Assembly: GCA_002344135.1 (NCBI GenBank)
Contig: DDTO01000008.1
Location: 88,566 to 152,565, forward strand
Reading direction: 5' to 3'
DNA length: 64,000 nucleotides
Source: Chthonomonas sp. UBA2362
Lineage (GTDB): Bacteria; Armatimonadota; Fimbriimonadia; Fimbriimonadales; Fimbriimonadaceae
Below the pieces are notes generated by a model. The model did no database searches. It was not told the DNA's origin and saw nothing but the letters and a program-made list of their open reading frames with translations. Each line of letters begins with the position of its first letter. The stretch's first letter is position 1. Positions 21,974 through 56,624 of this stretch are shown here, in pieces. Both the position numbers and the translations under genes were made by a program.

Positions 21974-24091
21974 ATGGAGGCGAGCCGCTGGCTCGTTCGG
22001 AGGAATTCTTTGGCTAAGTTTCTTGTCTATGCCGCCATTTTCGGCCTCGCGGTCACGGCATCCGCGCAGAGCAGGCTCAAGGTTTACGAGGAGCACTCCG
22101 GTGTAATGGAGTTTTCAGGCGAAATGATCGCCCGGCCCATGCTGCGCGAACAACTCCTCGCCCAGGTAGGTGCGAAGAACGCCGATAGGCTACTCTCGAG
22201 GGCCCGCTCTGTGGTGAAAGGGATGACGCTCCGCTACTACCGCGAAACCGACGAATACATTTTGCGAATTCCTTTCGGCTTCGACGAGAACTCGTTGTCG
22301 AGTTACCTGATGGGTCTCGGCGGGTTTCAGTATGTCGAACCGAACTACATTTGCTACCCGGTCTTGACGCCGAACGATCCGATGTACGGCAGCCAGTGGT
22401 GGCTGCCGAAAATCGAGGCCGCCCGCGCCTGGGACCGGTACACGGGACAGAGTTCGGTCGTCGCCGCGATTTGCGACACCGGATGCGACCTCGGCCATCA
22501 GGACCTTGCCGGGCGCTATGTCAGTGGCTACAACTCGGCCGACGACTTGCCGCAGTCGTTGGGCGGACAGGTCGGCAACCTCCACCCACACGGCACCCAC
22601 GTAGCCGGCATCGTGGGAGCCATCGGCAACAACGGCGTCGGCGTTTCGGGTGTGAATTGGAACGTTTCGATCATGCCGGTCCGTGTGAGCAATCAAACCT
22701 CGGGCAGTTCGAGTTACGAATTCCTCACTCGCGGCGCGCGATGGGCTGCCGAGAACGGCGCCAAGGTTATCAACACCAGCTACAGCGGCGTCTCGGGCGC
22801 GACGATCGGGACGACGGGAACCTACATCCGAAGCCTCGGCGCGCTCTATTTCTACGCGGCAGGCAACGATGGGGCGAACCTGAGCGGATTCGATCATGCC
22901 GACGTCGTCGTCGTCGGTGCCACCGACTCGGGTGATGCACGCGCGGGCTTCTCGGCGTACGGCCTCGCCGTCGACGTCTTCGCCCCCGGAGTCGACGTTC
23001 TGAGCACCATCCCCGGCAATGACTACGCCGCCTGGAGCGGCACGAGCATGGCCACGCCCGTCGCCTGCGGGATCGCCGGGCTGCTGTGGTCGGCCAATCC
23101 GAATCTAACCTCGCTGGAAGTAGAGCAGTTTCTTTCTACCGGCTGCGACGATCTCGGCCCTCCTGGCAACGACGTGGATTGGGGGTGGGGCCGAGTAAAC
23201 GCCTACCGCACTCTCGCCCAAGGCGTGGCTCAGATCAAGCAGAACCCGTCCACCGGCAACTATTACGAGCGGGTCACCGTACCGGGCAATGCGTCGAGCG
23301 CGAGCAATGCTGCCCAGAGTCGTTCGGTCTACGGTGTCGCCGGCCATCTCGCGACGATCACCAGTGCGGCCGAGAATCAGTGGATTCTCGCCAACCTCGA
23401 TGGCGATTACCTACGGGGTCACTGGCTGGGCGGCTACCAGCCGTTCGGCAGTCCGGAACCCGCCGGAAACTGGCGCTGGGTGACGAGCGAGCCGTGGTCG
23501 TACACGAACTGGAACCCGGGTGAGCCGAACAACGCGGGCGGCAACGAGGACTGGCTCGAATATTGGATCTCGGGCACCCTGGGCGGCTGGAACGACGCTG
23601 CATCGACTTCGGTCAGCCGTTCGACAGGCACCGGCTACGTCGTCGAGTACCCCGTGCCGGCGCCGGTGATGCTTTCGGGCACGGTCTCCCTTCAAGACTA
23701 TCTCGGCTCGACGAGCGGCGTGCCGGTCACGGTTCTCCTCAAGCAGGGCTCGACCGTGATCGCCTCCTACTCGACCACGACGACCGCGGGAGGCAACTGG
23801 TCGGTGGTGACTCCCTGGAAAGGGAACTACCGAATCCTCGTCAAGGCGTCTCACTGGCTGGCAGGGTTCTACGGAGTGGTCAACCTTTGGACGAGCAACG
23901 TTCCCGGCATCGTGACGAGCCTGGTCAACGGGGACGTGAACGGCGATAACTCCGTCGACATCGCGGACTATGCCCTTCTCTCCGGAGACTGGGGGATGGG
24001 GACGATCGGCGATCTCAACGGGGACGGCGACACGGACATCGGCGACTTCGCGATCCTGTCTGCACGGTTCGGGCTCGACGGGGACGAGTAG
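21974..24091 (+). CDS. S8 family serine peptidase with C-type-lectin-like insert and dockerin-type C-terminal cassette
   Basis: Signal peptide. Catalytic triad motifs AICDTGCD, HGTHVAGIVGA, SGTSMATPVACG. CTLD-like region with WNPGEPNN and GGWNDA. C-terminus GDVNGDNSVDIADYALLS...GDLNGDGDTDIGDFAILSARFGLDGDE. Confidence 0.9.
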   Translation: MEASRWLVRRNSLAKFLVYAAIFGLAVTASAQSRLKVYEEHSGVMEFSGEMIARPMLREQLLAQVGAKNADRLLSRARSVVKGMTLRYYRETDEYILRIPFGFDENSLSSYLMGLGGFQYVEPNYICYPVLTPNDPMYGSQWWLPKIEAARAWDRYTGQSSVVAAICDTGCDLGHQDLAGRYVSGYNSADDLPQSLGGQVGNLHPHGTHVAGIVGAIGNNGVGVSGVNWNVSIMPVRVSNQTSGSSSYEFLTRGARWAAENGAKVINTSYSGVSGATIGTTGTYIRSLGALYFYAAGNDGANLSGFDHADVVVVGATDSGDARAGFSAYGLAVDVFAPGVDVLSTIPGNDYAAWSGTSMATPVACGIAGLLWSANPNLTSLEVEQFLSTGCDDLGPPGNDVDWGWGRVNAYRTLAQGVAQIKQNPSTGNYYERVTVPGNASSASNAAQSRSVYGVAGHLATITSAAENQWILANLDGDYLRGHWLGGYQPFGSPEPAGNWRWVTSEPWSYTNWNPGEPNNAGGNEDWLEYWISGTLGGWNDAASTSVSRSTGTGYVVEYPVPAPVMLSGTVSLQDYLGSTSGVPVTVLLKQGSTVIASYSTTTTAGGNWSVVTPWKGNYRILVKASHWLAGFYGVVNLWTSNVPGIVTSLVNGDVNGDNSVDIADYALLSGDWGMGTIGDLNGDGDTDIGDFAILSARFGLDGDE

Positions 24092-24100
24092 AAAGGCCCG

Positions 24101-24300
24101 CCACGGGAAGACGGCCCCGATCCGGGGGCACGACCCATCCCCCGGCTACCTCCACATCGCCGGTAGCCCGCGGATGGTTTCTGCCGCGGGAAGACGGCCC
24201 CGATCCGGGGGCACGACCCATCCTCCGGCTACCTCCACATCGCCGGTAGCCCGCGGATGGTTTTTGCCGCGGGAAGACGGTTCTCACCCGGGGACATGCG
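24101..24300 (+). repeat. tandem 83-bp hairpin repeat, 2 full copies + 1 truncated head (locus B)
   Basis: CGGGAAG heads at 24104, 24187 and 24270 (exact 83-bp spacing). Copies 1 and 2 differ at 3 positions by my reading. Arms CCATCCCCCGGCTACC (24135-24150) and GGTAGCCCGCGGATGG (24162-24177) pair 14/16. Confidence 0.9.
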
Positions 24301-24519
24301 CTGAACGTCGACTTGAATCTCGCGATGCCCTTGGTCTCGGTGGGAAATACGGCCCTGGGGAGGCGACGCCGGAGGCGTCGAAGATGCGATAGCCCGGGGT
24401 CGAAGACCCCGGGAGGAGGAGTTCGCGATTTGAGCCGACCCCGAAGGGGTCGCAGAATCCGAGGCTCGGAGAATGTGTTGTGGCCCCCCTCCGGGGTGCG
24501 CCCGTCGGGGCGGCCCGCA

Positions 24520-24601
24520 TCCCCGGGGTCGTAACCGGGGGCACGACCCATCCCCCGGCTACCTCCCACACGCAGGTACCCCGCGCATCGGCCGTGCCCC
24601 C
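24520..24601 (+). repeat. divergent solo copy of the same repeat family, flanked by a 10-bp inverted repeat
   Basis: CCGGGGGCACGACCCATCCCCCGGCTACCTCC is shared with locus B. It is bracketed by CGGGGGCACG ... CGTGCCCCCG. Confidence 0.65.
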
Positions 24602-37821: not shown

Positions 37822-37898
37822 CGGGGCGTGGCGCAGCTTGGTAGCGCACCTGCTTTGGGAGCAGGGGGTCGCCAGTTCGAATCTGGCCGCCCCGACCA
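37822..37898 (+). tRNA. tRNA-Pro (anticodon UGG)
   Basis: CGGGGCG acceptor stem pairs with CGCCCCG, followed by ACCA. D-loop AGCTTGGTAG. Anticodon stem CCTGC/GCAGG with loop TTTGGGA. T-arm GGTCGCCAGTTCGAATCTGGC. Confidence 0.9.
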
Positions 37899-39677: not shown

Positions 39678-41411
39678 ATGCTTCGTTTTTGGAGTTCGCT
39701 CGCCCTCGGCTTGGCCGTCGCGAGTGTGAGTTTCGCTAATGGCACGGTTCAAGAATACGTGCCTGGAGAGGTCCTCGTTAAGTTCAAGCACACCAGCGTT
39801 TCGCCCGATGCGATCCGCGCGAACCGACTCATCGGAGCCGAAGTCGTGAATGAACTGACCGAGATCGGCGTCTCCCTCATCCGTATTCCCGACACCCTTT
39901 CGGTCGAGAATGCAGTGAAGTACTACCAGTCGATTCAGGGAGTCGAGTTTGCCGAGCCGAACGGCATCGTCCATGCGACGTTCACTCCGAACGATCCCTC
40001 TTTCGCCAGTCAGCAGTACGGTCCGCAGATCATCCAGTGCCAGCCGGCCTGGGACGTCAACCAGGGCAGCAGCAGCGTCATCATAGCGATCGTCGATACG
40101 GGCATCAACATGAGCCACGTCGACCTGAGCGGAAAGATCGTTGCCGGCTGGGACTTCGTCAACAACGATGCCGATGCCTCGGACGACCATGGACACGGCA
40201 CGCACTGCGCGGGCATTTCCGCCGCAAAGACCAATAACGCGGTCGGCATCGCAGGAGTCGGCTTCAACTGCTGGCTCATGCCGGTCAAGGTGCTTAACTC
40301 AGGCGGCAGCGGCACATGGGAGAACGTCGCCGCCGGGATCAACTTCGCCTCGACCAATGGAGCACACGTTATCTCGATGAGCCTGGGCGGATCCGGTACG
40401 TCGGCGACCGTGCAGGCTGCGGTCGACAACGCCTGGAACAACAATCGGCTCGTCGTGGCTGCCGCCGGCAACAGCGGCTCGACCTCCCAGTTCTATCCCG
40501 CCGCCTACCCCAACTGCATCGCCGTCGCCTCGACGACGAACACGGATGCACGATCGTCGTTCAGCAACTACGGCGCTTCCTGGGTCGACGTGGCGGCTCC
40601 CGGCTCGGACATCTACTCCACCTATGGATCCGGCTACACCCTCCTGAGTGGAACATCCATGGCGTGCCCGCACGTCGCGGGCCTCGGCGGCCTGCTCTGG
40701 GCCCACCTCGGAACGAATACGAACGTTGCCGTGATTCGGCAGCGGATCGAGCAGAACTGCGACCCCGTAGGGAACTTCATCGCTTGGGGCCGCATCAACG
40801 CCTATCGTGCGCTGACCGGGCAGACCATCGCCTCGATCACTGCGCTTTCGCTTAATCCCACGACCGTCACCGCCGGCGCGACCTCGACGGCAACCGTGAC
40901 GCTGAGTATTCCCGCACCGAGCGGTGGCACCCTCGTCACGCTGTCCTCGAACAATGCGGCGGCGACGGTACCGTCCTCCATCACGGTTCCGGAAGGCTCG
41001 AACACGGCACAGTTCACCGTGAATACCCATCAGCCGGCGTCGACTCAGATCTGCCAGATCACAGGTACCGCCGGAGGCCAGAACCGGAGCGCTAACCTTA
41101 CGGTTAATCCTGCGCCAGTCATTACGCTTCGTGACTTCCGACTGTCGAACTACAGTGTGCTGGGCGGATCGGGGCTCTACGGCTACGTCTATCTCCAGCA
41201 AGCGGCGCCTCCGGGCGGGGTTATCGTGACGATCACCAAGAACGGTGGTGGGCTCAACGTCATCGTTCCGACCACTGCGTTCATTCCGGCGGGAACGAAC
41301 TTCGCGCGAATCGTCATTGCGACGGCCCCGGTGCAATCGGTCATCACGTCCGACATTAGCGCGGTATACGGCTCGCAGTCGATCATGCGAACGTTGACCG
41401 TGAACCCGTAG
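39678..41411 (+). CDS. S8 family serine peptidase with two C-terminal Ig-like repeats
   Basis: Signal peptide. An inhibitor-I9-like propeptide (EVLVKFK). IVDTGINMSHVDL, HGTHCAGI, SGTSMACPHVAG. Then two domains of about 95 aa, each ending ...LTVNP. Confidence 0.9.
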   Translation: MLRFWSSLALGLAVASVSFANGTVQEYVPGEVLVKFKHTSVSPDAIRANRLIGAEVVNELTEIGVSLIRIPDTLSVENAVKYYQSIQGVEFAEPNGIVHATFTPNDPSFASQQYGPQIIQCQPAWDVNQGSSSVIIAIVDTGINMSHVDLSGKIVAGWDFVNNDADASDDHGHGTHCAGISAAKTNNAVGIAGVGFNCWLMPVKVLNSGGSGTWENVAAGINFASTNGAHVISMSLGGSGTSATVQAAVDNAWNNNRLVVAAAGNSGSTSQFYPAAYPNCIAVASTTNTDARSSFSNYGASWVDVAAPGSDIYSTYGSGYTLLSGTSMACPHVAGLGGLLWAHLGTNTNVAVIRQRIEQNCDPVGNFIAWGRINAYRALTGQTIASITALSLNPTTVTAGATSTATVTLSIPAPSGGTLVTLSSNNAAATVPSSITVPEGSNTAQFTVNTHQPASTQICQITGTAGGQNRSANLTVNPAPVITLRDFRLSNYSVLGGSGLYGYVYLQQAAPPGGVIVTITKNGGGLNVIVPTTAFIPAGTNFARIVIATAPVQSVITSDISAVYGSQSIMRTLTVNP

Positions 41412-41477: not shown

Positions 41478-42569
41478 TTAGTCGCCTTCCAGTCCGAAGT
41501 TATTGCTCAGGATCGCGAAGTCTCCGATATCGACCTCGTCATCGCCCAGCAGGTCGGCATTGGCGTTCCAATTCGGGTCACCGGGGATGGCGCCGAAAGC
41601 GGAAGATAGCAGAGCGTAGTCTCCGATGGAGATCTCATTGTCGCCATCGCAGTCGCCATTGACGAGGCTGAAACTGAGGTCTCCGCCGAATTCGCCGAAC
41701 GTCACCTGTTGGCATTGCCGGAGCCAGTGGGGCGCCTTCACGCAGACGGTGTATTCGCCCTCCACGCAGGCCCGTATGGGGATCGCTGACTCGCTGCTCA
41801 GGTTGATGGTGGACTCGCGGATGACGTTTCCTCCGCCATCTTGGATCGTGACCGTGATCGGTACGGCGGTCTCGTCGCCAAGATAGTCCTGTAACTCTCC
41901 GTCGACCATCAAGTACGTCCCGAACGGGTGCGTGCTGATCGCGAAGTAACCCGCCAAAAAGTCGGCCGAAGCTTGATCGGGTTCTCGCATCATGACGAAG
42001 TCTATCGTCGTGCCAGGCACGACTTGTACGGTCAGTGCCGACGTTCCGCCTGAGAAGTCTTCGAATCTGAGCGGAAACTGCGACGAGAAGGTGTTGGGCG
42101 CAATGAACGAGGCCTGGCTTACAGTGAGGCCGTTGACCTGGATGAAGCTGTTCATCCAGCGTCCGATATTGCGCGGCATCCAGGTCTCGCCACAGAGGTA
42201 CACCGTGCCGTTGATCGGACTCGTCCAGCGTAAGCAAGAGTATTCGGTGGCGGTTCGCTCTGTCTCCGCCCCATGCATGAAGACCGTTCCTCGGGGAAGG
42301 TCCATGTTGTAGACTCGGCTGATCGTAGCCCTTGCCCACATCGGAACATGGTCGTTATATGGCAACGGCCGGGCGGCCCATGCCGCCTGGTTGGTCCCGG
42401 GATCCCAGGGATTCCAGTTGGTGGTGAACAGGGAACTCGGAGCTTGAAGAAGGCTCCAAGCACCGAACGGATTTGTTGCATCACTCCAGTCCGCAGACGC
42501 ATTCCAGGTGGTCGCGCCCGCAGAAACGGCGATGCTCATGGCGAGCAGTAGTGTGGTCTGACGCATCAT
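41478..42569 (-). CDS. secreted protein of unknown function with dockerin-type C-terminal cassette
   Basis: GGAG-N5-ATG at 42569. Signal peptide MMRQTTLLLAMSIAVSAGA. C-terminus ELQDYLG...VKAPHWL...NGDCDGDNEISIGDYALLSSAFG...DLLGDDEVDIGDFAILSNNFGLEGD-stop. Confidence 0.75.
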   Translation of the reverse strand: MMRQTTLLLAMSIAVSAGATTWNASADWSDATNPFGAWSLLQAPSSLFTTNWNPWDPGTNQAAWAARPLPYNDHVPMWARATISRVYNMDLPRGTVFMHGAETERTATEYSCLRWTSPINGTVYLCGETWMPRNIGRWMNSFIQVNGLTVSQASFIAPNTFSSQFPLRFEDFSGGTSALTVQVVPGTTIDFVMMREPDQASADFLAGYFAISTHPFGTYLMVDGELQDYLGDETAVPITVTIQDGGGNVIRESTINLSSESAIPIRACVEGEYTVCVKAPHWLRQCQQVTFGEFGGDLSFSLVNGDCDGDNEISIGDYALLSSAFGAIPGDPNWNANADLLGDDEVDIGDFAILSNNFGLEGD

Positions 42570-44856: not shown

Positions 44857-46680
44857 ATGATGAAGTTCACGCTCGTCGCGTCGGCTTTGCTGACGGCTTC
44901 ACTCGCATTCGCCGAGGGAATTCCGATTTCGGTCACCGGCTACAACTGGGACGGCATCGCCAATGGCGCACCCACGAACAACGACCCTCCCGCGGTGCAA
45001 GCCAGCACCACGGGCACGCTCGATGGCATCTTCTGCTATTTCGAGAGGGGCTTCTGGTCCCTCGATGCCAACGTCGGGCTGCCGCCGGATGGAAAGGTGA
45101 CGTCCTACGTGGACAACCTGACGCGCTATCAGCTTCGGCCGGCCACGGGCGACAATCTTCTGCTTCTGCGCAACCTGTTCAACCCGTCCGGCACCCTGAC
45201 GCTGGTCACGCCGGGCTCCTATCGGAAGATTCACTTCCTGGTCACCGGGTTCAATGGCAGTCTGCCGGGTCGCTACACGCTCCACTTCAGTGACCTGAGC
45301 AGCACGAGCGGATCGTTCACCTCGCCCGACAACTTCAACCAGGTCGGTTGGGCGATTCGCGGTTTCGGTCGGGTGGACCGCGACAACGATGGGGTGTTCG
45401 CGAACCCGGCCCTCAATCCGCGAATCTATCAAGTGACCGTCGGCTTGAACGCCCTGGATGCGATGAAGACGCTCACCGCCATCGAGTTCTTCAACGACGA
45501 TGTGACCGGGCTCAATCACCACAACGTCGGCATCTTCGGAGTCTCAGGGGTCCCGACGACGGCGGATTCGATGCCGATTGCGGCGAGCGGATACGACTTC
45601 GACGGCGTGGCAGACGGGCCGCCCGTCGAGAACGACCCCTTCGCCGTACAGGCCAGCACCGACGGAGACCTCGATAGCCAATACGTGTACTTTTCCCAGG
45701 GATTTTGGCTCTCGAACCCGTTCGCCGGGCTGCCTTCCAGCGGGACGATCGTGAGTGCCCTCGACGGCAGCTCGATCTTCCAGTTGCGCCCCTACGACGG
45801 CCCCAACATTCTTCTCCTCCGGCAAGCGGGCTCGGGGCAGTCGACGAAGACGCTTAGCCTCGCAAGCCCCGATCGGTACAGCCGACTCTCGTTCCTCATC
45901 ACGGGCTTCAACGGTCGCCAGCCTCTCCAGTACACGCTGAACTTCCAGGGAGGAGGGACGTTTACGGACACGATCTTCGCTTCCGACAACTTCAACACGC
46001 CGGATTTCGCGATCAACGCCATCGGGCGAGTCAGTCGAACGACGGGGGCGTTCCAGAACGACGGCTCGAATCCGCGCCTCTATCACGCCGACGTGTGGCT
46101 CTCCGCCGCGGAGTCGAGCCAAGTGATCCAGAGCATCACCTTCTCGAACGTGGAAACGACCGGCGTCAACGCTAGAAACATCGGCGTGTTCGCACTCAGC
46201 GGCGTCCCGTCCTCCTCACAGATCACCGTTTCAGGGCGCGTCACCTTCGGCGACCGCCAGGGCAACTTCCCCTCGACGGTCGACATCGAGTTCAAGGATC
46301 CGAACAACCCGATCATCGTGGTTCATACCGCGATGGGCGTCGTGGTGGCTCCGAACGGTAACTACAGCACGTCGGACCTTCCGGCCACTTCCGGCTCCTA
46401 CCTGGTCGCAGTCAAGCCAGCGCCGTGGCTTCGAAAGACGGTAGGCCCTATCAATACCGGGTCGTCACACGTGGGCGTCGACTTTTTGCTGAGCAACGGC
46501 GATATCGACGATGATAACGAAATCGCGATCGGAGACTATGCTTTGCTCTCGTCGGCATTTGGCTCTGGGCCGGGCGATCCCAACTGGAATCCTGCAGCCG
46601 ACCTGGATGGCGACGACGAGGTCACGATCGGTGACTACGCAATCCTCTCGCAGAACTTCGGCATGATCGGCGACGAGTGA
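44857..46680 (+). CDS. secreted protein with internally duplicated ~215-aa domain and dockerin-type C-terminal cassette
   Basis: GGAGGGAGAAG-ATG at 44857. Signal peptide MMKFTLVASALLTASLAFA. Two homologous domains (about 44915-45560 and 45570-46215). C-terminus NGDIDDDNEIAIGDYALLSSAFG...DLDGDDEVTIGDYAILSQNFGMIGDE-stop. Confidence 0.75.
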   Translation: MMKFTLVASALLTASLAFAEGIPISVTGYNWDGIANGAPTNNDPPAVQASTTGTLDGIFCYFERGFWSLDANVGLPPDGKVTSYVDNLTRYQLRPATGDNLLLLRNLFNPSGTLTLVTPGSYRKIHFLVTGFNGSLPGRYTLHFSDLSSTSGSFTSPDNFNQVGWAIRGFGRVDRDNDGVFANPALNPRIYQVTVGLNALDAMKTLTAIEFFNDDVTGLNHHNVGIFGVSGVPTTADSMPIAASGYDFDGVADGPPVENDPFAVQASTDGDLDSQYVYFSQGFWLSNPFAGLPSSGTIVSALDGSSIFQLRPYDGPNILLLRQAGSGQSTKTLSLASPDRYSRLSFLITGFNGRQPLQYTLNFQGGGTFTDTIFASDNFNTPDFAINAIGRVSRTTGAFQNDGSNPRLYHADVWLSAAESSQVIQSITFSNVETTGVNARNIGVFALSGVPSSSQITVSGRVTFGDRQGNFPSTVDIEFKDPNNPIIVVHTAMGVVVAPNGNYSTSDLPATSGSYLVAVKPAPWLRKTVGPINTGSSHVGVDFLLSNGDIDDDNEIAIGDYALLSSAFGSGPGDPNWNPAADLDGDDEVTIGDYAILSQNFGMIGDE

Positions 46681-55298: not shown

Positions 55299-56624
55299 AT
55301 GAGAATCGCAAAACTGAGCATAGCTGTGCTCGCCGTCGGGTTAGGGCCCTGGGCCACCGGGCAAAATGTTCACCCTGACTACGCTGGCTCTTATTCTTTG
55401 TTGAACCTTGGAAACGTCCCGAATGTGCCGTTCAACTATGGAGGACTTACCCTCAAGCGGGGAACGACCGACCGGCTCCTGATCGGTGGGGCCGCGAACC
55501 AGATCGGAGGTGGAATGTATGAAATCGGAGTCACCCGCGACGGCCAGGGTCACATCAACGGCTTCGTGGGAACCGCGACGTACGTAGCGAACCTTGAATA
55601 CAACGATGGTGGGCTCACTTACCACAACGGAAGCGGTGTGCTCTTCGCCTCGCGATGGCCCGTCAATGCCTTGGGCCAGTACAAACCCGGCAGTTTCAAT
55701 CCCGACAAGATCATCGATCTCGCAGGCCTGAACGTCGCTCAGTCACACGCCGCCCTGCAGTTCGTGCCTTCCAACTTCCCGGCCGCGGCGGGACGCCTGA
55801 AGCTCAGCTCCTGGGCGGGCGGTGAGTTTTATGACTGCGCACTCATCCCGGACGGCCTCGGCACCTTCGACATCACCGTCCCTCAGCTACGAACGACTCT
55901 CGGGGGTGGGCCGGAGGGAATCATCTATGTGCCGCCAGGATCGCCCCTCTTCGGCTCGAGGGACATGCTGGTCTCAGAGTACAGCGCCGGTATGGTCGCG
56001 CACTACGAATGCGACGCGAACGGCGACCCGGACGTTCTCTCCCGCCGGACCTTCGTGGAGGGGCTTTTTGGCGCTGAAGGCGCGTTCGTCGACCCGTTGA
56101 CCGGCGACTTTCTCTTCTCGACCTTCGGCTCGGGCAACGAAGTCTTCGTGGTTCGTGGGTTCGCTTCTCAGCGGCTGATATCGGGCGACGTCGACCTGCA
56201 GGATTTCTTCGGCGACCCGCAGAGCATTCAGGCCACTTTGGAAATTCGTAACGTCGGCAGCACGACGCCGATCGAATCTCATACCATCGCCCTCTTCGCT
56301 TCCTCGGGCTACAGCGTGGTTACTTCGGTCAGCCCCGGCACTTACGACATAGCGATCAAGCCTAACCACTGGCTGCGTCACAAGCGAGGATCGATCGCTG
56401 TCGGCACAACAGGAGCGACGGTGGACTTTTCGGTGGCGAACGGAGACGTCGACGAGGACAACGAAATCACGATCGGCGACTATGCCCAACTCTCGGCGGC
56501 CTTCGGCTCGGTGCCCGGCGACGGCAACTGGAATGCACTGGCCGACCTCGAAGGCGACCTCGAAGTGACGATCGGAGACTATGCGATCCTGTCGCAGAAC
56601 TTCGGCATGCTCGGCGACGACTAA
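55299..56624 (+). CDS. secreted protein of unknown function with dockerin-type C-terminal cassette
   Basis: GGAGG-N9-ATG. Signal peptide MRIAKLSIAVLAVGLGPWATG. C-terminus DLQDFFG...IKPNHWL...NGDVDEDNEITIGDYAQLSAAFG...DLEGDLEVTIGDYAILSQNFGMLGDD-stop. Confidence 0.75.
   Translation: MRIAKLSIAVLAVGLGPWATGQNVHPDYAGSYSLLNLGNVPNVPFNYGGLTLKRGTTDRLLIGGAANQIGGGMYEIGVTRDGQGHINGFVGTATYVANLEYNDGGLTYHNGSGVLFASRWPVNALGQYKPGSFNPDKIIDLAGLNVAQSHAALQFVPSNFPAAAGRLKLSSWAGGEFYDCALIPDGLGTFDITVPQLRTTLGGGPEGIIYVPPGSPLFGSRDMLVSEYSAGMVAHYECDANGDPDVLSRRTFVEGLFGAEGAFVDPLTGDFLFSTFGSGNEVFVVRGFASQRLISGDVDLQDFFGDPQSIQATLEIRNVGSTTPIESHTIALFASSGYSVVTSVSPGTYDIAIKPNHWLRHKRGSIAVGTTGATVDFSVANGDVDEDNEITIGDYAQLSAAFGSVPGDGNWNALADLEGDLEVTIGDYAILSQNFGMLGDD

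Follow-up and report, generated by a model that had tools for sequence, protein, structure and literature searches.

An X-module-dockerin dyad at the C-terminus of diverse secreted proteins in Armatimonadota

Four proteins encoded in a single stretch of bacterial DNA end in the same module. The stretch, here called the window, is 64,000 nucleotides long and comes from Chthonomonas sp. UBA2362, a member of the Fimbriimonadaceae in the Armatimonadota. This raises the question of what the module is, and what it does for the proteins that carry it. A first-pass annotation of the window had described a beta-sandwich-like segment followed by two dockerin-type calcium loops. It offered two readings: a non-cellulosomal cohesin-dockerin system, or an unrecognised C-terminal sorting signal.

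All four open reading frames are present as described (Table 1), and each starts with a Sec-type signal peptide, as read by eye. The last 146-157 amino acids can be aligned across the four proteins, with 36 invariant columns; compared pairwise by BLASTP, these cassettes are 35-60% identical, with E from 5e-21 to 1e-44. The N-terminal parts are indeed unrelated, their best pairwise BLASTP match having an E of 0.13. Searching the six-frame translation of the window with a cassette HMM returns the four copies already reported and nothing else below E=2. The span first given for the ORF1 cassette, 23669-24088, falls within 6 codons of the measured one. Every shared motif that had been listed was found, including the first (LQDY/FxG), which is degenerate in the X module of ORF3, as the list had it. 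In ORF1 the dockerin linker between the two repeats is 7 amino acids shorter than in the other three cassettes.

Pfam confirms that the cargo of ORF1 is a Peptidase_S8 domain with a Lectin_C insert. The cargos of ORF2, ORF3 and ORF4 had been called domains of unknown function, and scans of both Pfam and NCBIfam assign them to no family. NCBI names a near-identical cluster mate of ORF1 'S8 family serine peptidase [Fimbriimonadaceae bacterium]', and the 90%-identity cluster representative of ORF2 (362 aa) 'dockerin type I domain-containing protein'.

Table 1. Positions in the window of the four open reading frames and their X-module-dockerin (XDoc) cassettes.
Feature	Length	Position	Strand	Content	HMM E	C-terminus
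ORF1	705 aa	21974..24091	+	signal peptide; S8 subtilase aa 161-406; C-type lectin insert aa 456-547; XDoc cassette aa 560-705		
ORF1 XDoc cassette		23651..24088	+	X beta-sandwich ~23651-23929; dockerin 23930-24067	6e-64	...FGLDGDE
ORF2	363 aa, counted from second ATG	41478..42569	-	signal peptide; ~210 aa cargo, no known family; XDoc cassette		
ORF2 XDoc cassette		41481..41930	-	dockerin 41499-41657	4e-74	...FGLEGD
ORF3	607 aa	44857..46680	+	signal peptide; two tandem ~215 aa repeats, no known family; XDoc cassette		
ORF3 XDoc cassette		46207..46677	+	dockerin 46498-46656	2e-68	...FGMIGDE
ORF4	441 aa	55299..56624	+	signal peptide; ~285 aa cargo, no known family; XDoc cassette		
ORF4 XDoc cassette (the modelled one)		56157..56621	+	dockerin 56442-56600	3e-78	...FGMLGDD

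The two D-x-(D/N)-x-D...D loops do belong to a dockerin. Pfam Dockerin_1 (PF00404, gathering score 22.9) recognises them in all four proteins, at 27.4 bits in ORF2 (aa 305-357), 27.3 in ORF3 and 24.7 in ORF4; the S8 protease ORF1 scores 21.2 bits (aa 653-698), which is slightly below the gathering score. The same family is found in 96 of 103 homologues. For the X module, Pfam offers a CarboxypepD_reg match in ORF3 (E 0.013, aa 457-520).

The AF2 model of the ORF4 cassette has a pLDDT of 97.2 and a pTM of 0.89. As modelled, the X part is a seven-stranded transthyretin-like beta-sandwich, packed against a two-repeat Ca2+-binding dockerin. When this model is compared to the PDB using Foldseek, the top ten matches are all XDoc dyads, aligned over both domains (chains 4wi0_B, 4u3s_B, 2b59_B, 3kcp_A, 4fl4, 5g5d_B, 5m0y_B and 5k39_B; E 1e-10 to 2.5e-8, TM 0.69-0.75 over some 160 columns). 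The next-best fold has a TM of around 0.4. A cassette profile searched against PDB sequences also matches XDoc chains across both modules, with E from 2e-6 to 1e-4: 2.2e-6 for 4wi0_B, 2.9e-6 for 4u3s_B (profile positions 7-149), 9.6e-6 for 2b59_B and 2.6e-5 for 5k39_B.

It is close to certain that the cassette is an XDoc dyad, homologous as a whole to the type II X-module-dockerin of cellulosomes. The earlier reading of a beta-sandwich with a genuine dockerin is upheld by Pfam and by AF2 with Foldseek. The likeness to type I dockerins that was also claimed survives in part: the repeats are symmetric like those of type I, but by structure and sequence the cassette in its entirety is a homologue of the type II dyad. 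The conserved K-x-S-H-W-L-R stretch of the X module might have been a special binding site, but was not taken for one. Its counterpart in the ScaA X module is the strand K-A-N-Y-L-T-R, and it presumably resembles the usual GY-strand of CarboxypepD_reg domains.

Across 228 homologous cassettes, the Ca-loop positions D96, D/N98, D100 and D107, and likewise D129, N/D131, D133 and D140, are 96-100% conserved. From this conservation and the AF2 model, the dockerin repeats are two tandem EF-hand-like Ca2+ loops of 12 residues, each followed by a helix (residues 106-115 and 139-147 in the model). In loops of this kind the ligands are at positions 1, 3, 5, 9 and 12. The G-D-(E/D) ending first noticed in the window is real and general: in the 228 cassettes, the profile closes on three positions that hold G in 100%, D in 92% and E/D in 90%.

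A stop codon lies at most 2 residues from the cassette end in 227 of 240 cases in proteins, and in 96 of 100 in raw DNA. Some 95% of the copies are C-terminal, and a few are elsewhere. One cassette is N-terminal, at residues 69-215 of a 1708-aa Rhs/Tox-REase-7 toxin. The other exceptions are tandem arrays of 2-7 copies, and cassettes that are followed by a second dockerin.

The cassette is not confined to this window. At E<=1e-30, 374 clusters (at 50% identity) within the Armatimonadota contain it, with many copies per genome. A signal-peptide-like N-terminus was found on 114 of 157 complete-looking homologues. Cargo architectures were scanned for 103 proteins, and a list of their top 25 cargo families is headed by DUF4394 (6 proteins), Peptidase_S8, DUF6923 and DUF3466 (4 each). 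Also on it are the S53 pro-domain, M10 and M12 peptidases and one GH25 lysozyme, which is the only glycoside hydrolase listed; cellulases, cohesins and CBM3 are absent from these 25. The cargo is mostly peptidases and unknown domains, and further includes HAF-repeat and propeller proteins, lysozyme and an Rhs toxin.

The census of relatives, like the window, agrees with a reusable C-terminal module on secreted and unrelated cargo. The non-cellulosomal reading also stands. The cargo listed is not cellulolytic, and the window holds no cohesin. HAF-repeat proteins in Armatimonadota genomes bear either XDoc or, alternatively, PEP-CTERM. Together with the signal-peptide-like N-termini, this supports a surface role for XDoc.

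If the dockerin docks, it is of interest which residues would make the contact. The putative contact positions are 10, 11 and 17 of each 22-residue repeat, and these are symmetric. The two repeats have the same residue at equivalent positions in 211 of 228 cassettes where 98 would be expected, and in 214 of 228 where 78 would be. The helix residues that touch cohesin in solved complexes vary between genomes, and they do so in step across both repeats and all paralogues. This amounts to a contact 'dialect', which the paralogues of a genome have in common and which changes from genome to genome, even where the cargo is orthologous. The window genome uses IGS (I-G...S). In genome Ch118 all 14 of 14 cassettes read LFV, and in HR16 16 of 17 read LFV/LFV, the 17th being truncated. 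SMAG_U15143 has LxK and TGS_ARM4 has IxR, and in further genomes FG has become WR in both repeats.

Agreement within genomes combined with difference between them suggests that each genome has one protein receptor, with which the dockerins co-evolve. Judged from these sequence patterns, XDoc likely docks onto a protein receptor. The uniformity of the dialects could partly stem from recent lineage-specific expansion, and not from co-evolution.

Cohesin-dockerin pairs are the textbook case of modular extracellular assembly, and a workhorse of synthetic biology. Clostridial type II XDoc fastens the complex to cell-surface cohesins, and binds in a single orientation. In the type II XDoc of C. thermocellum CipA (2B59, 3KCP, 4FL4) and A. 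cellulolyticus ScaA (4U3S, 4WI0), the two-domain architecture and the orientation of the domains are as in Armatimonadota, and both are C-terminal. The differences are considerable, however. The Armatimonadota dyad is carried by dozens of cargos per genome instead of by one cohesin-bearing scaffoldin, its host is diderm and not a Firmicute, and the cargo is not cellulolytic. Type II dockerins are asymmetric, whereas the repeats here are symmetric. No type II cohesin anchored by SLH or sortase was found, and the candidate partner discussed below carries PEP-CTERM.

Type I dockerins have species-specific recognition residues and a dual binding mode. The cassette shares with them two 22-residue repeats of a Ca2+ loop plus helix, a match to PF00404, symmetric putative contact positions, and residues at these positions that agree within a genome and differ from one genome to the next. 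Unlike type I dockerins, it has an obligatory preceding X module and a conserved G-D-(E/D)-COOH, and it comes without multi-cohesin scaffoldin or CAZyme cargo. A cellulosome consists of CAZyme dockerins on a multi-cohesin, CBM-bearing scaffoldin, and the XDoc cargo listed is not of this kind.

There are also non-cellulosomal systems, in C. perfringens (toxin/glycosidase, 2VO8 and 2OZN), Archaeoglobus fulgidus (2XDH) and Cloacimonadota. There too, dockerins are found on non-cellulolytic secreted proteins, including peptidases. In the complex proposed for Cloacimonadota, the cohesin protein is thought to be anchored via a C-terminal sorting domain (PMC8542988). Compared to such systems, the Armatimonadota have the XDoc dyad instead of a bare dockerin, and have expanded it phylum-wide. 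Their candidate for the cohesin role is a single-domain, PEP-CTERM-sorted protein which lies below what the Pfam cohesin model detects.

A receptor was sought in several ways. The first-pass annotation saw no cohesin-like partner in the window, and Pfam finds none in ten further window proteins either. A phmmer search with the CipA cohesin (query sequence checked to be 1AOH) over 80 XDoc loci, or some 1.1 Mb of related DNA, yields nothing below E 0.46. A protein search seeded with the CipA cohesin gives only 10 close relatives and no useful profile. Among the neighbours of 78 XDoc loci and in the 103 cargo architectures scanned there is no cohesin, and searches of XDoc loci and cargo show none linked to SLH or sortase.

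Clustering the neighbours of these 78 loci yields no consistent partner except PEP-CTERM proteins, and no conserved machinery gene that recurs. The two largest neighbour 'families' are artefacts, which arise where the conserved cassette DNA is read antisense or in a shifted frame. Of the remaining recurrent neighbours, one is pilin-like (a prepilin-type N-terminus, by eye) and a second resembles Gfo/Idh/MocA-type oxidoreductases; both are presumably just abundant in Armatimonadota genomes. Among the papers searched, none links Armatimonadota with dockerin or cohesin, and none joins dockerin, cohesin and PEP-CTERM.

One PEP-CTERM family, here called A5, is the leading candidate receptor. It is encoded outside the window, and consists of proteins of about 230 amino acids (mostly 227-235) with a PEP-CTERM anchor and a predicted fold that is cohesin-like. 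There are 61 clusters, of which all that carry an organism name are from Armatimonadota, and PEP-CTERM is present in 56 of 56 members scanned. In three diverged subfamilies, the A5 gene directly follows XDoc genes on the same strand, after a gap of 22-115 nt; in one of them the upstream cargo is different. By chance, about 0.25 A5 genes would be expected in the sampled DNA. A second PEP-CTERM family is located between XDoc genes at three loci (L041, L062, L072). It begins with NLVxNGDFEGG and looks CBM4_9-like.

The AF2 model of A5 has a pLDDT of 88.9. In a Foldseek search of the PDB, cohesins make up 29 of its top 50 matches (E 1e-4 to 1.6e-3, target-normalised TM 0.41-0.71), with integrin and GH123 sandwiches interleaved at similar scores. 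These E-values are modest; the fold sought was the nine-stranded jelly-roll beta-sandwich of cohesins. The cohesins matched are of types I, II and III as well as non-cellulosomal, and include 2VO8 and 2XDH. Pfam Cohesin (PF00963), scanned at E<=10, matches 1 of 56 members, at E 0.12. An A5 profile finds no cohesin among PDB sequences, only a spurious WD40, and hhalign of A5 with one cohesin and with a seven-sequence CipA cohesin alignment gives probabilities below 1%. Going by its model, A5 would be cohesin-like at the fold level only.

In thermophilic lineages, A5 has putA, dnaN and an ECF sigma factor gene as its neighbours, and a full XDoc gene is absent within 8-10 kb. At locus L082, a degenerate XDoc copy is some 8 kb away from the A5 gene. 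It also counts against A5 that dozens of cargos would need to be held by a receptor with a single domain. That A5 is the XDoc receptor is a tentative idea, possible but short of probable.

A quite different reading takes the cassette for a C-terminal signal for secretion or sorting like the CTD of T9SS, which dedicated outer-membrane machinery recognises and then removes or links covalently. The invariant G-D-(E/D)-COOH would then be the recognition or cleavage determinant. Such a role would suit a cassette that is so often found at the extreme C-terminus, with a terminal tripeptide that is nearly invariant, on cargo as diverse as the substrates of T9SS or PEP-CTERM; one type of cargo even bears PEP-CTERM in its place. 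Indeed PEP-CTERM/exosortase, LPXTG and T9SS CTD tags, like XDoc, sit C-terminally on diverse secreted cargo. Dockerins, however, are generally C-terminal, and this one ends within its folded domain, where the pLDDT is 97 up to the last block. In contrast to these tags, XDoc folds into an acidic module of 150 amino acids with no TM helix or basic tail, and its acidic tail has no hydrophobic helix. It can also be internal, as in the N-terminal region of the Rhs toxin, in tandem arrays and before a second dockerin. The 78 XDoc loci lack a recurring machinery gene, and on the four window proteins no NCBIfam or Pfam sorting model (GlyGly-CTERM, PEP-CTERM, LPXTG, T9SS CTD-type) has a match. The unrecognised sorting signal of the first-pass annotation is disfavoured, since the ending is part of a folded dockerin and non-terminal copies exist. 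This reading is very improbable.

It might also be that there is no protein receptor at all, and that the X module and the Ca2+-loaded dockerin stick cargo directly to surface or matrix polysaccharide (LPS, EPS), or act by Ca2+ bridging. A canonical cohesin was after all not found in the window, the related loci or the A5 scans, and many non-cellulosomal dockerins are reported to lack a known cohesin (Peer et al. 2009, as cited in PMC8542988). The X module has a CarboxypepD_reg/transthyretin-like fold, which is often a carbohydrate binder; PF13620-type domains are common with carbohydrate-active and surface proteins; and the source is bioreactor sludge that forms flocs and biofilms. Yet contact residues that change together in both repeats and all paralogues are the signature of a co-evolving protein partner, and the dyad as a whole is a homologue of a unit known to bind protein, so that direct sticking appears quite unlikely. 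A protein partner other than A5 is also conceivable: a canonical multi-cohesin scaffoldin elsewhere in the genome, or homotypic XDoc, with A5 an unrelated matrix protein of the PepA type. The DNA inspected is a small fraction of any genome, and tandem-XDoc or multi-dockerin proteins (P0177, P0194, P0126) could act as adaptors. A5 is weakly similar to the flocculation protein PepA, at a sub-threshold 24 bits against a cut-off of 80, and is unlinked to XDoc genes in several lineages. But cohesin went undetected near the 78 loci and in the 103 architectures, and XDoc followed by A5 recurs in three diverged lineages despite the low number expected by chance. Such a partner is, on balance, unlikely.

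The best explanation overall, favoured a little beyond an even chance, is that the XDoc dyad tags exoproteins for docking onto a cohesin-type receptor on the surface or in the matrix. The cargo, with its signal peptides, would be exported through Sec, and would then get outside the diderm cell. There the dockerin would fold around two Ca2+, perhaps stabilised by the X module and the conserved C-terminal tail, by analogy with the dockerin 'clasp'. The two symmetric helices, bearing the contact set specific to the genome (I-G...S in the window genome), may then plug non-covalently into one genome-encoded cohesin-type receptor on the cell surface or in the exopolymer matrix. Unrelated exoproteins would be retained in this way: proteases, lysozyme, HAF-repeat and propeller proteins, and an Rhs toxin.

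A more specific proposal is that of an undescribed display system for the Armatimonadota exoproteome, with dozens of XDoc-tagged proteins per genome, a symmetric species-specific code and a single PEP-CTERM receptor of cohesin fold. In that full form it is rather doubtful. If true, cellulosome anchoring would have a counterpart in diderm bacteria that is non-cellulolytic. Were A5 confirmed, exosortase sorting and cohesin-dockerin docking would be functionally linked for the first time, and a ligand would be known for one protein of the PEP-CTERM class, which is largely uncharacterised.

So far the XDoc dyad has been seen as peculiar to the anchoring of scaffoldins in clostridia and ruminococci. 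What would be new is that a whole phylum, and a poorly studied one, appears to put it to general use as an address tag on proteases, lysozymes, lectin-like proteins and an Rhs toxin. The naturally orthogonal dockerin dialects would be of use as a set, and the surface or matrix proteome of Armatimonadota would become predictable directly from sequence. XDoc, until now the anchor of a single scaffoldin, would take on the wider role of anchoring an exoproteome.

ORF1 to ORF4 are encoded in a Fimbriimonadaceae (Armatimonadota) MAG that occurs in bioreactor-sludge metagenomes. Each protein starts with a Sec-type signal peptide, as judged by inspection, and ends in a common cassette as the first-pass annotation described: the final 146-157 residues can be aligned with 36 invariant columns, and the cassettes compared pairwise by BLASTP match at E 5e-21 to 1e-44. 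As also claimed, the N-terminal parts have no mutual similarity by the same comparison (best E 0.13), and the cassette is used four times: a four-cassette HMM run on the six-frame translation of the window recovers exactly these copies, with nothing more below E=2. At NCBI, near-identical cluster mates of ORF1 and ORF2 are called 'S8 family serine peptidase' and 'dockerin type I domain-containing protein', and ORF3 and one ORF4 cluster mate are 'hypothetical'.

Pfam Dockerin_1 matches all four, three over the gathering threshold and the fourth 1.7 bits under it. The segment N-terminal to the dockerin has a weak CarboxypepD_reg likeness. In an AlphaFold2 model of the ORF4 cassette (50-sequence alignment, pLDDT 97.2, pTM 0.89), this segment, earlier called beta-sandwich-like, is indeed a seven-strand beta-sandwich, followed by two dockerin helices. 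When the model is compared to the PDB with Foldseek, the best ten matches are all type II X-module-dockerin (XDoc) dyads, aligned over both domains (TM 0.69-0.75, E 1e-10 to 2.5e-8). They belong to A. cellulolyticus ScaA, C. thermocellum CipA and a further C. thermocellum XDoc (5m0y_B, 5k39_B). After these dyads come single transthyretin-like domains, with TM ~0.4. A four-sequence profile matches the same chains by sequence, covering both X module and dockerin (4u3s_B: E 2.9e-6, profile positions 7-149), and ranks the B. cellulosolvens type II dockerin 2y3n_B (7.7e-8) above type I dockerins. Because structure and sequence profile both match across the two domains, the cassette is a homologue of the XDoc dyad. 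The dockerin-type Ca loops reported earlier are present, as part of something more than a type I dockerin with an unrelated leading domain.

The census of relatives by HMM, proposed with the first annotation, gives 374 clusters (50% identity) at E<=1e-30 and 3975 at E<=1e-10 when 1.84 billion representative proteins are scanned in full. GTDB species genomes hold at least 480 confirmed cassette loci. The best 80 of these are all from MAGs labelled Armatimonadota or unclassified ('bacterium'), the named groups being HR16, Chthonomonadia, Fimbriimonadaceae and Fimbriimonadales, and within these 80 single genomes supply 12-13 loci each. A few protein matches carry Firmicutes MAG labels, which we suspect to be mis-binning.

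The cassette sits on secreted cargo that is otherwise unrelated. In a set of 103 architectures, cargo is most often DUF4394 (6 proteins), S8 peptidase (4), DUF6923 (4) or DUF3466/HAF-like repeats (4). Also present are peptidases of the S53 pro-domain, M10 and M12 families, beta-propellers and one GH25 lysozyme. Cellulase, cohesin and CBM3 are absent from the list of the 25 commonest families. HAF-repeat proteins of these genomes have either XDoc or a PEP-CTERM tag in the same position. The cassette was first described as C-terminal in all four window proteins. Across homologues it is so overwhelmingly, ending at most 2 residues from the C-terminus in 227 of 240 full cassettes from retrieved proteins and at most 2 codons from the stop in 96 of 100 found in raw DNA irrespective of gene calls, but not obligatorily. 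The metagenomic representative P0248 (1708 aa), an Rhs-repeat toxin whose C-terminal part is a Tox-REase-7 nuclease, has a complete XDoc directly after the signal sequence, which suggests a contact-dependent toxin docked at the surface. Tandem arrays of 2-7 cassettes also occur, as do proteins in which an extra dockerin follows the cassette. Four representatives without recognisable cargo (P0177, P0194, P0126, P0140), with 2-7 tandem XDoc or, by Pfam, three to six tandem dockerins, could act as adaptors or cross-linkers.

Conservation at the Ca2+-loop ligands is 96-100% across 228 aligned cassettes. Within one protein, the two repeats have the same residue at putative contact positions 10, 11 and 17 in 211, 172 and 214 of these 228, where column composition would give 98, 69 and 78. 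The resulting dialect is L-F...V in Chthonomonadia Ch118 (14/14 cassettes) and HR16 (16/16 complete cassettes, the 17th being truncated), I-G...S in the window genome (I-A in one first repeat), L-(S/A)...K in SMAG_U15143, I-(A/G)...R in TGS_ARM4 and V-F...S in MBR_H125, where F-G is replaced by F-D. Several Fimbriimonadales genomes have W-R for F-G, in both repeats and both paralogues. The dialect differs among genomes for orthologous cargo and is common to unrelated cargo inside one genome; its code is thus both symmetric and specific to the genome. The same pattern is known for type I dockerins that are species-specific and bind in a dual mode. It is as expected if all XDoc paralogues of a genome co-evolve with one common protein partner, although shared descent through recent expansion could in part account for a uniform dialect.

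A generic polysaccharide ligand is another possible reading, with XDoc as an orphan dockerin. The genome-wise dialect argues against it, and the symmetric code would be left unexplained. It is also possible that the protein partner is a different one, encoded elsewhere, given that each genome was read in fraction only. The unrecognised C-terminal sorting signal considered in the first-pass annotation is disfavoured: the ending lies within an acidic domain that is folded, sorting models give no match, and the cassette also occurs internally and in tandem. [quoted passage not shown]

For a common protein partner there is a candidate. Pfam finds no cohesin in the window, in line with the initial impression. 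Among the neighbours in 78 XDoc loci, a small protein with a signal peptide, a beta-rich domain and PEP-CTERM lies directly downstream of tandem S8-XDoc genes. This family, A5, has only 61 clusters, those bearing an organism name all being Armatimonadota; its length is mostly 227-235 aa, PEP-CTERM is present in 56/56 scanned, and it co-occurs with XDoc genes in at least 8 MAGs. Sequence methods do not recognise A5 as cohesin. AlphaFold2 predicts for it an all-beta domain with a C-terminal helix (pLDDT 88.9). Cohesin modules, of types I, II and III and from C. perfringens and A. fulgidus, make up 29 of the 50 PDB entries that match this model best (E 1e-4 to 1.6e-3; TM up to 0.71, normalised to cohesin), with integrin and GH123 sandwiches interspersed. 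The arrangement [S8-XDoc][S8-XDoc][A5], all on the same strand and with ~110 nt between genes, recurs on two further contigs. For the most divergent member, the gene 22 nt upstream encodes a 1153-aa XDoc protein with different cargo. By our estimate, five copies beside XDoc (~three independent) compare with ~0.25 expected by chance for a single-copy gene, since the sampled loci, ~1.1 Mb, are about a quarter of one genome equivalent. Against the candidate, A5 stands by itself in three thermophilic lineages, where its neighbours are putA, an ECF sigma factor gene and dnaN. That A5 is the XDoc receptor is a tentative proposal, and we lean somewhat against it.

Further features are listed below. 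The 83-nt copies all lie within a gene-free gap of ~640 nt and have no Rfam match at gathering score. The second PEP-CTERM family could be another docking or matrix component. The window genome uses exosortase sorting, as its own PEP-CTERM protein, which is outside family A5, shows.

Coordinates of cassette proteins and other features (window positions unless a locus or protein is named)
Feature	Position	Remarks
ORF1	21974..24091(+)	
ORF2	41478..42569(-)	
ORF3	44857..46680(+)	
ORF3 cargo	44857-46206	two tandem ~215-aa repeats, 42% identity, E 4e-58; no Pfam or NCBIfam family
ORF4	55299..56624(+)	
83-nt tandem unit	24100-24182, 24183-24265	right behind ORF1 stop codon; 96% identity
Partial third copy	to 24296	
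Further copy	24513-24595	67% identity; 330 nt further on
PEP-CTERM protein	1579-2250	224 aa; Pfam 27.3 bits; remaining domain without known family
Second S8 protease	39678-41411	fervidolysin-type prodomain; adjoins ORF2; without XDoc; catalytic Pfam match ends aa 361, then ~200 aa without Pfam match, by eye two repeated segments
tRNA-Pro (TGG)	37822-37898	sole RNA gene detected in window
A5 example	L076 12915-13625	24 bits (cut-off 80) to flocculation-associated PEP-CTERM protein PepA (NF033554); similarity reaches past PEP-CTERM motif
Second PEP-CTERM family	L041 6404-7123, L062 2355-3053, L072 4921-5598	217 aa; conserved; in HR16, Ch118 and a related MAG, with XDoc genes on either side; mature N-terminus NLVxNGDFEGG, CBM4_9-like in appearance
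P0248 XDoc	residues 69-215	

Dockerins outside cellulosomes are not new (Peer et al. 2009, as cited in PMC8542988), and for Cloacimonadota a sorting-domain-anchored complex of dockerin-peptidases and cohesin-scaffoldin has been proposed (PMC8542988). Some cassette proteins are already labelled dockerin-containing by NCBI. Our literature search found no recognition of the whole cassette as an XDoc dyad, no report that a whole phylum uses it as a general tag for exoproteins, and neither the species-specific symmetric code of these dockerins nor a linked candidate in which PEP-CTERM is combined with a cohesin-like fold.

Related loci contain LptC/LptD-like and TolC-like genes, which points to a diderm envelope. 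Cargo would be Sec-exported and then cross the outer membrane, after which the Ca2+-loaded dockerin, buttressed by the X module, would plug into a receptor of the cohesin type, located either on the surface or within the exopolymer matrix. The symmetry of the repeats would permit either of two orientations, and the receptor would possibly be fixed at surface or matrix by exosortase.
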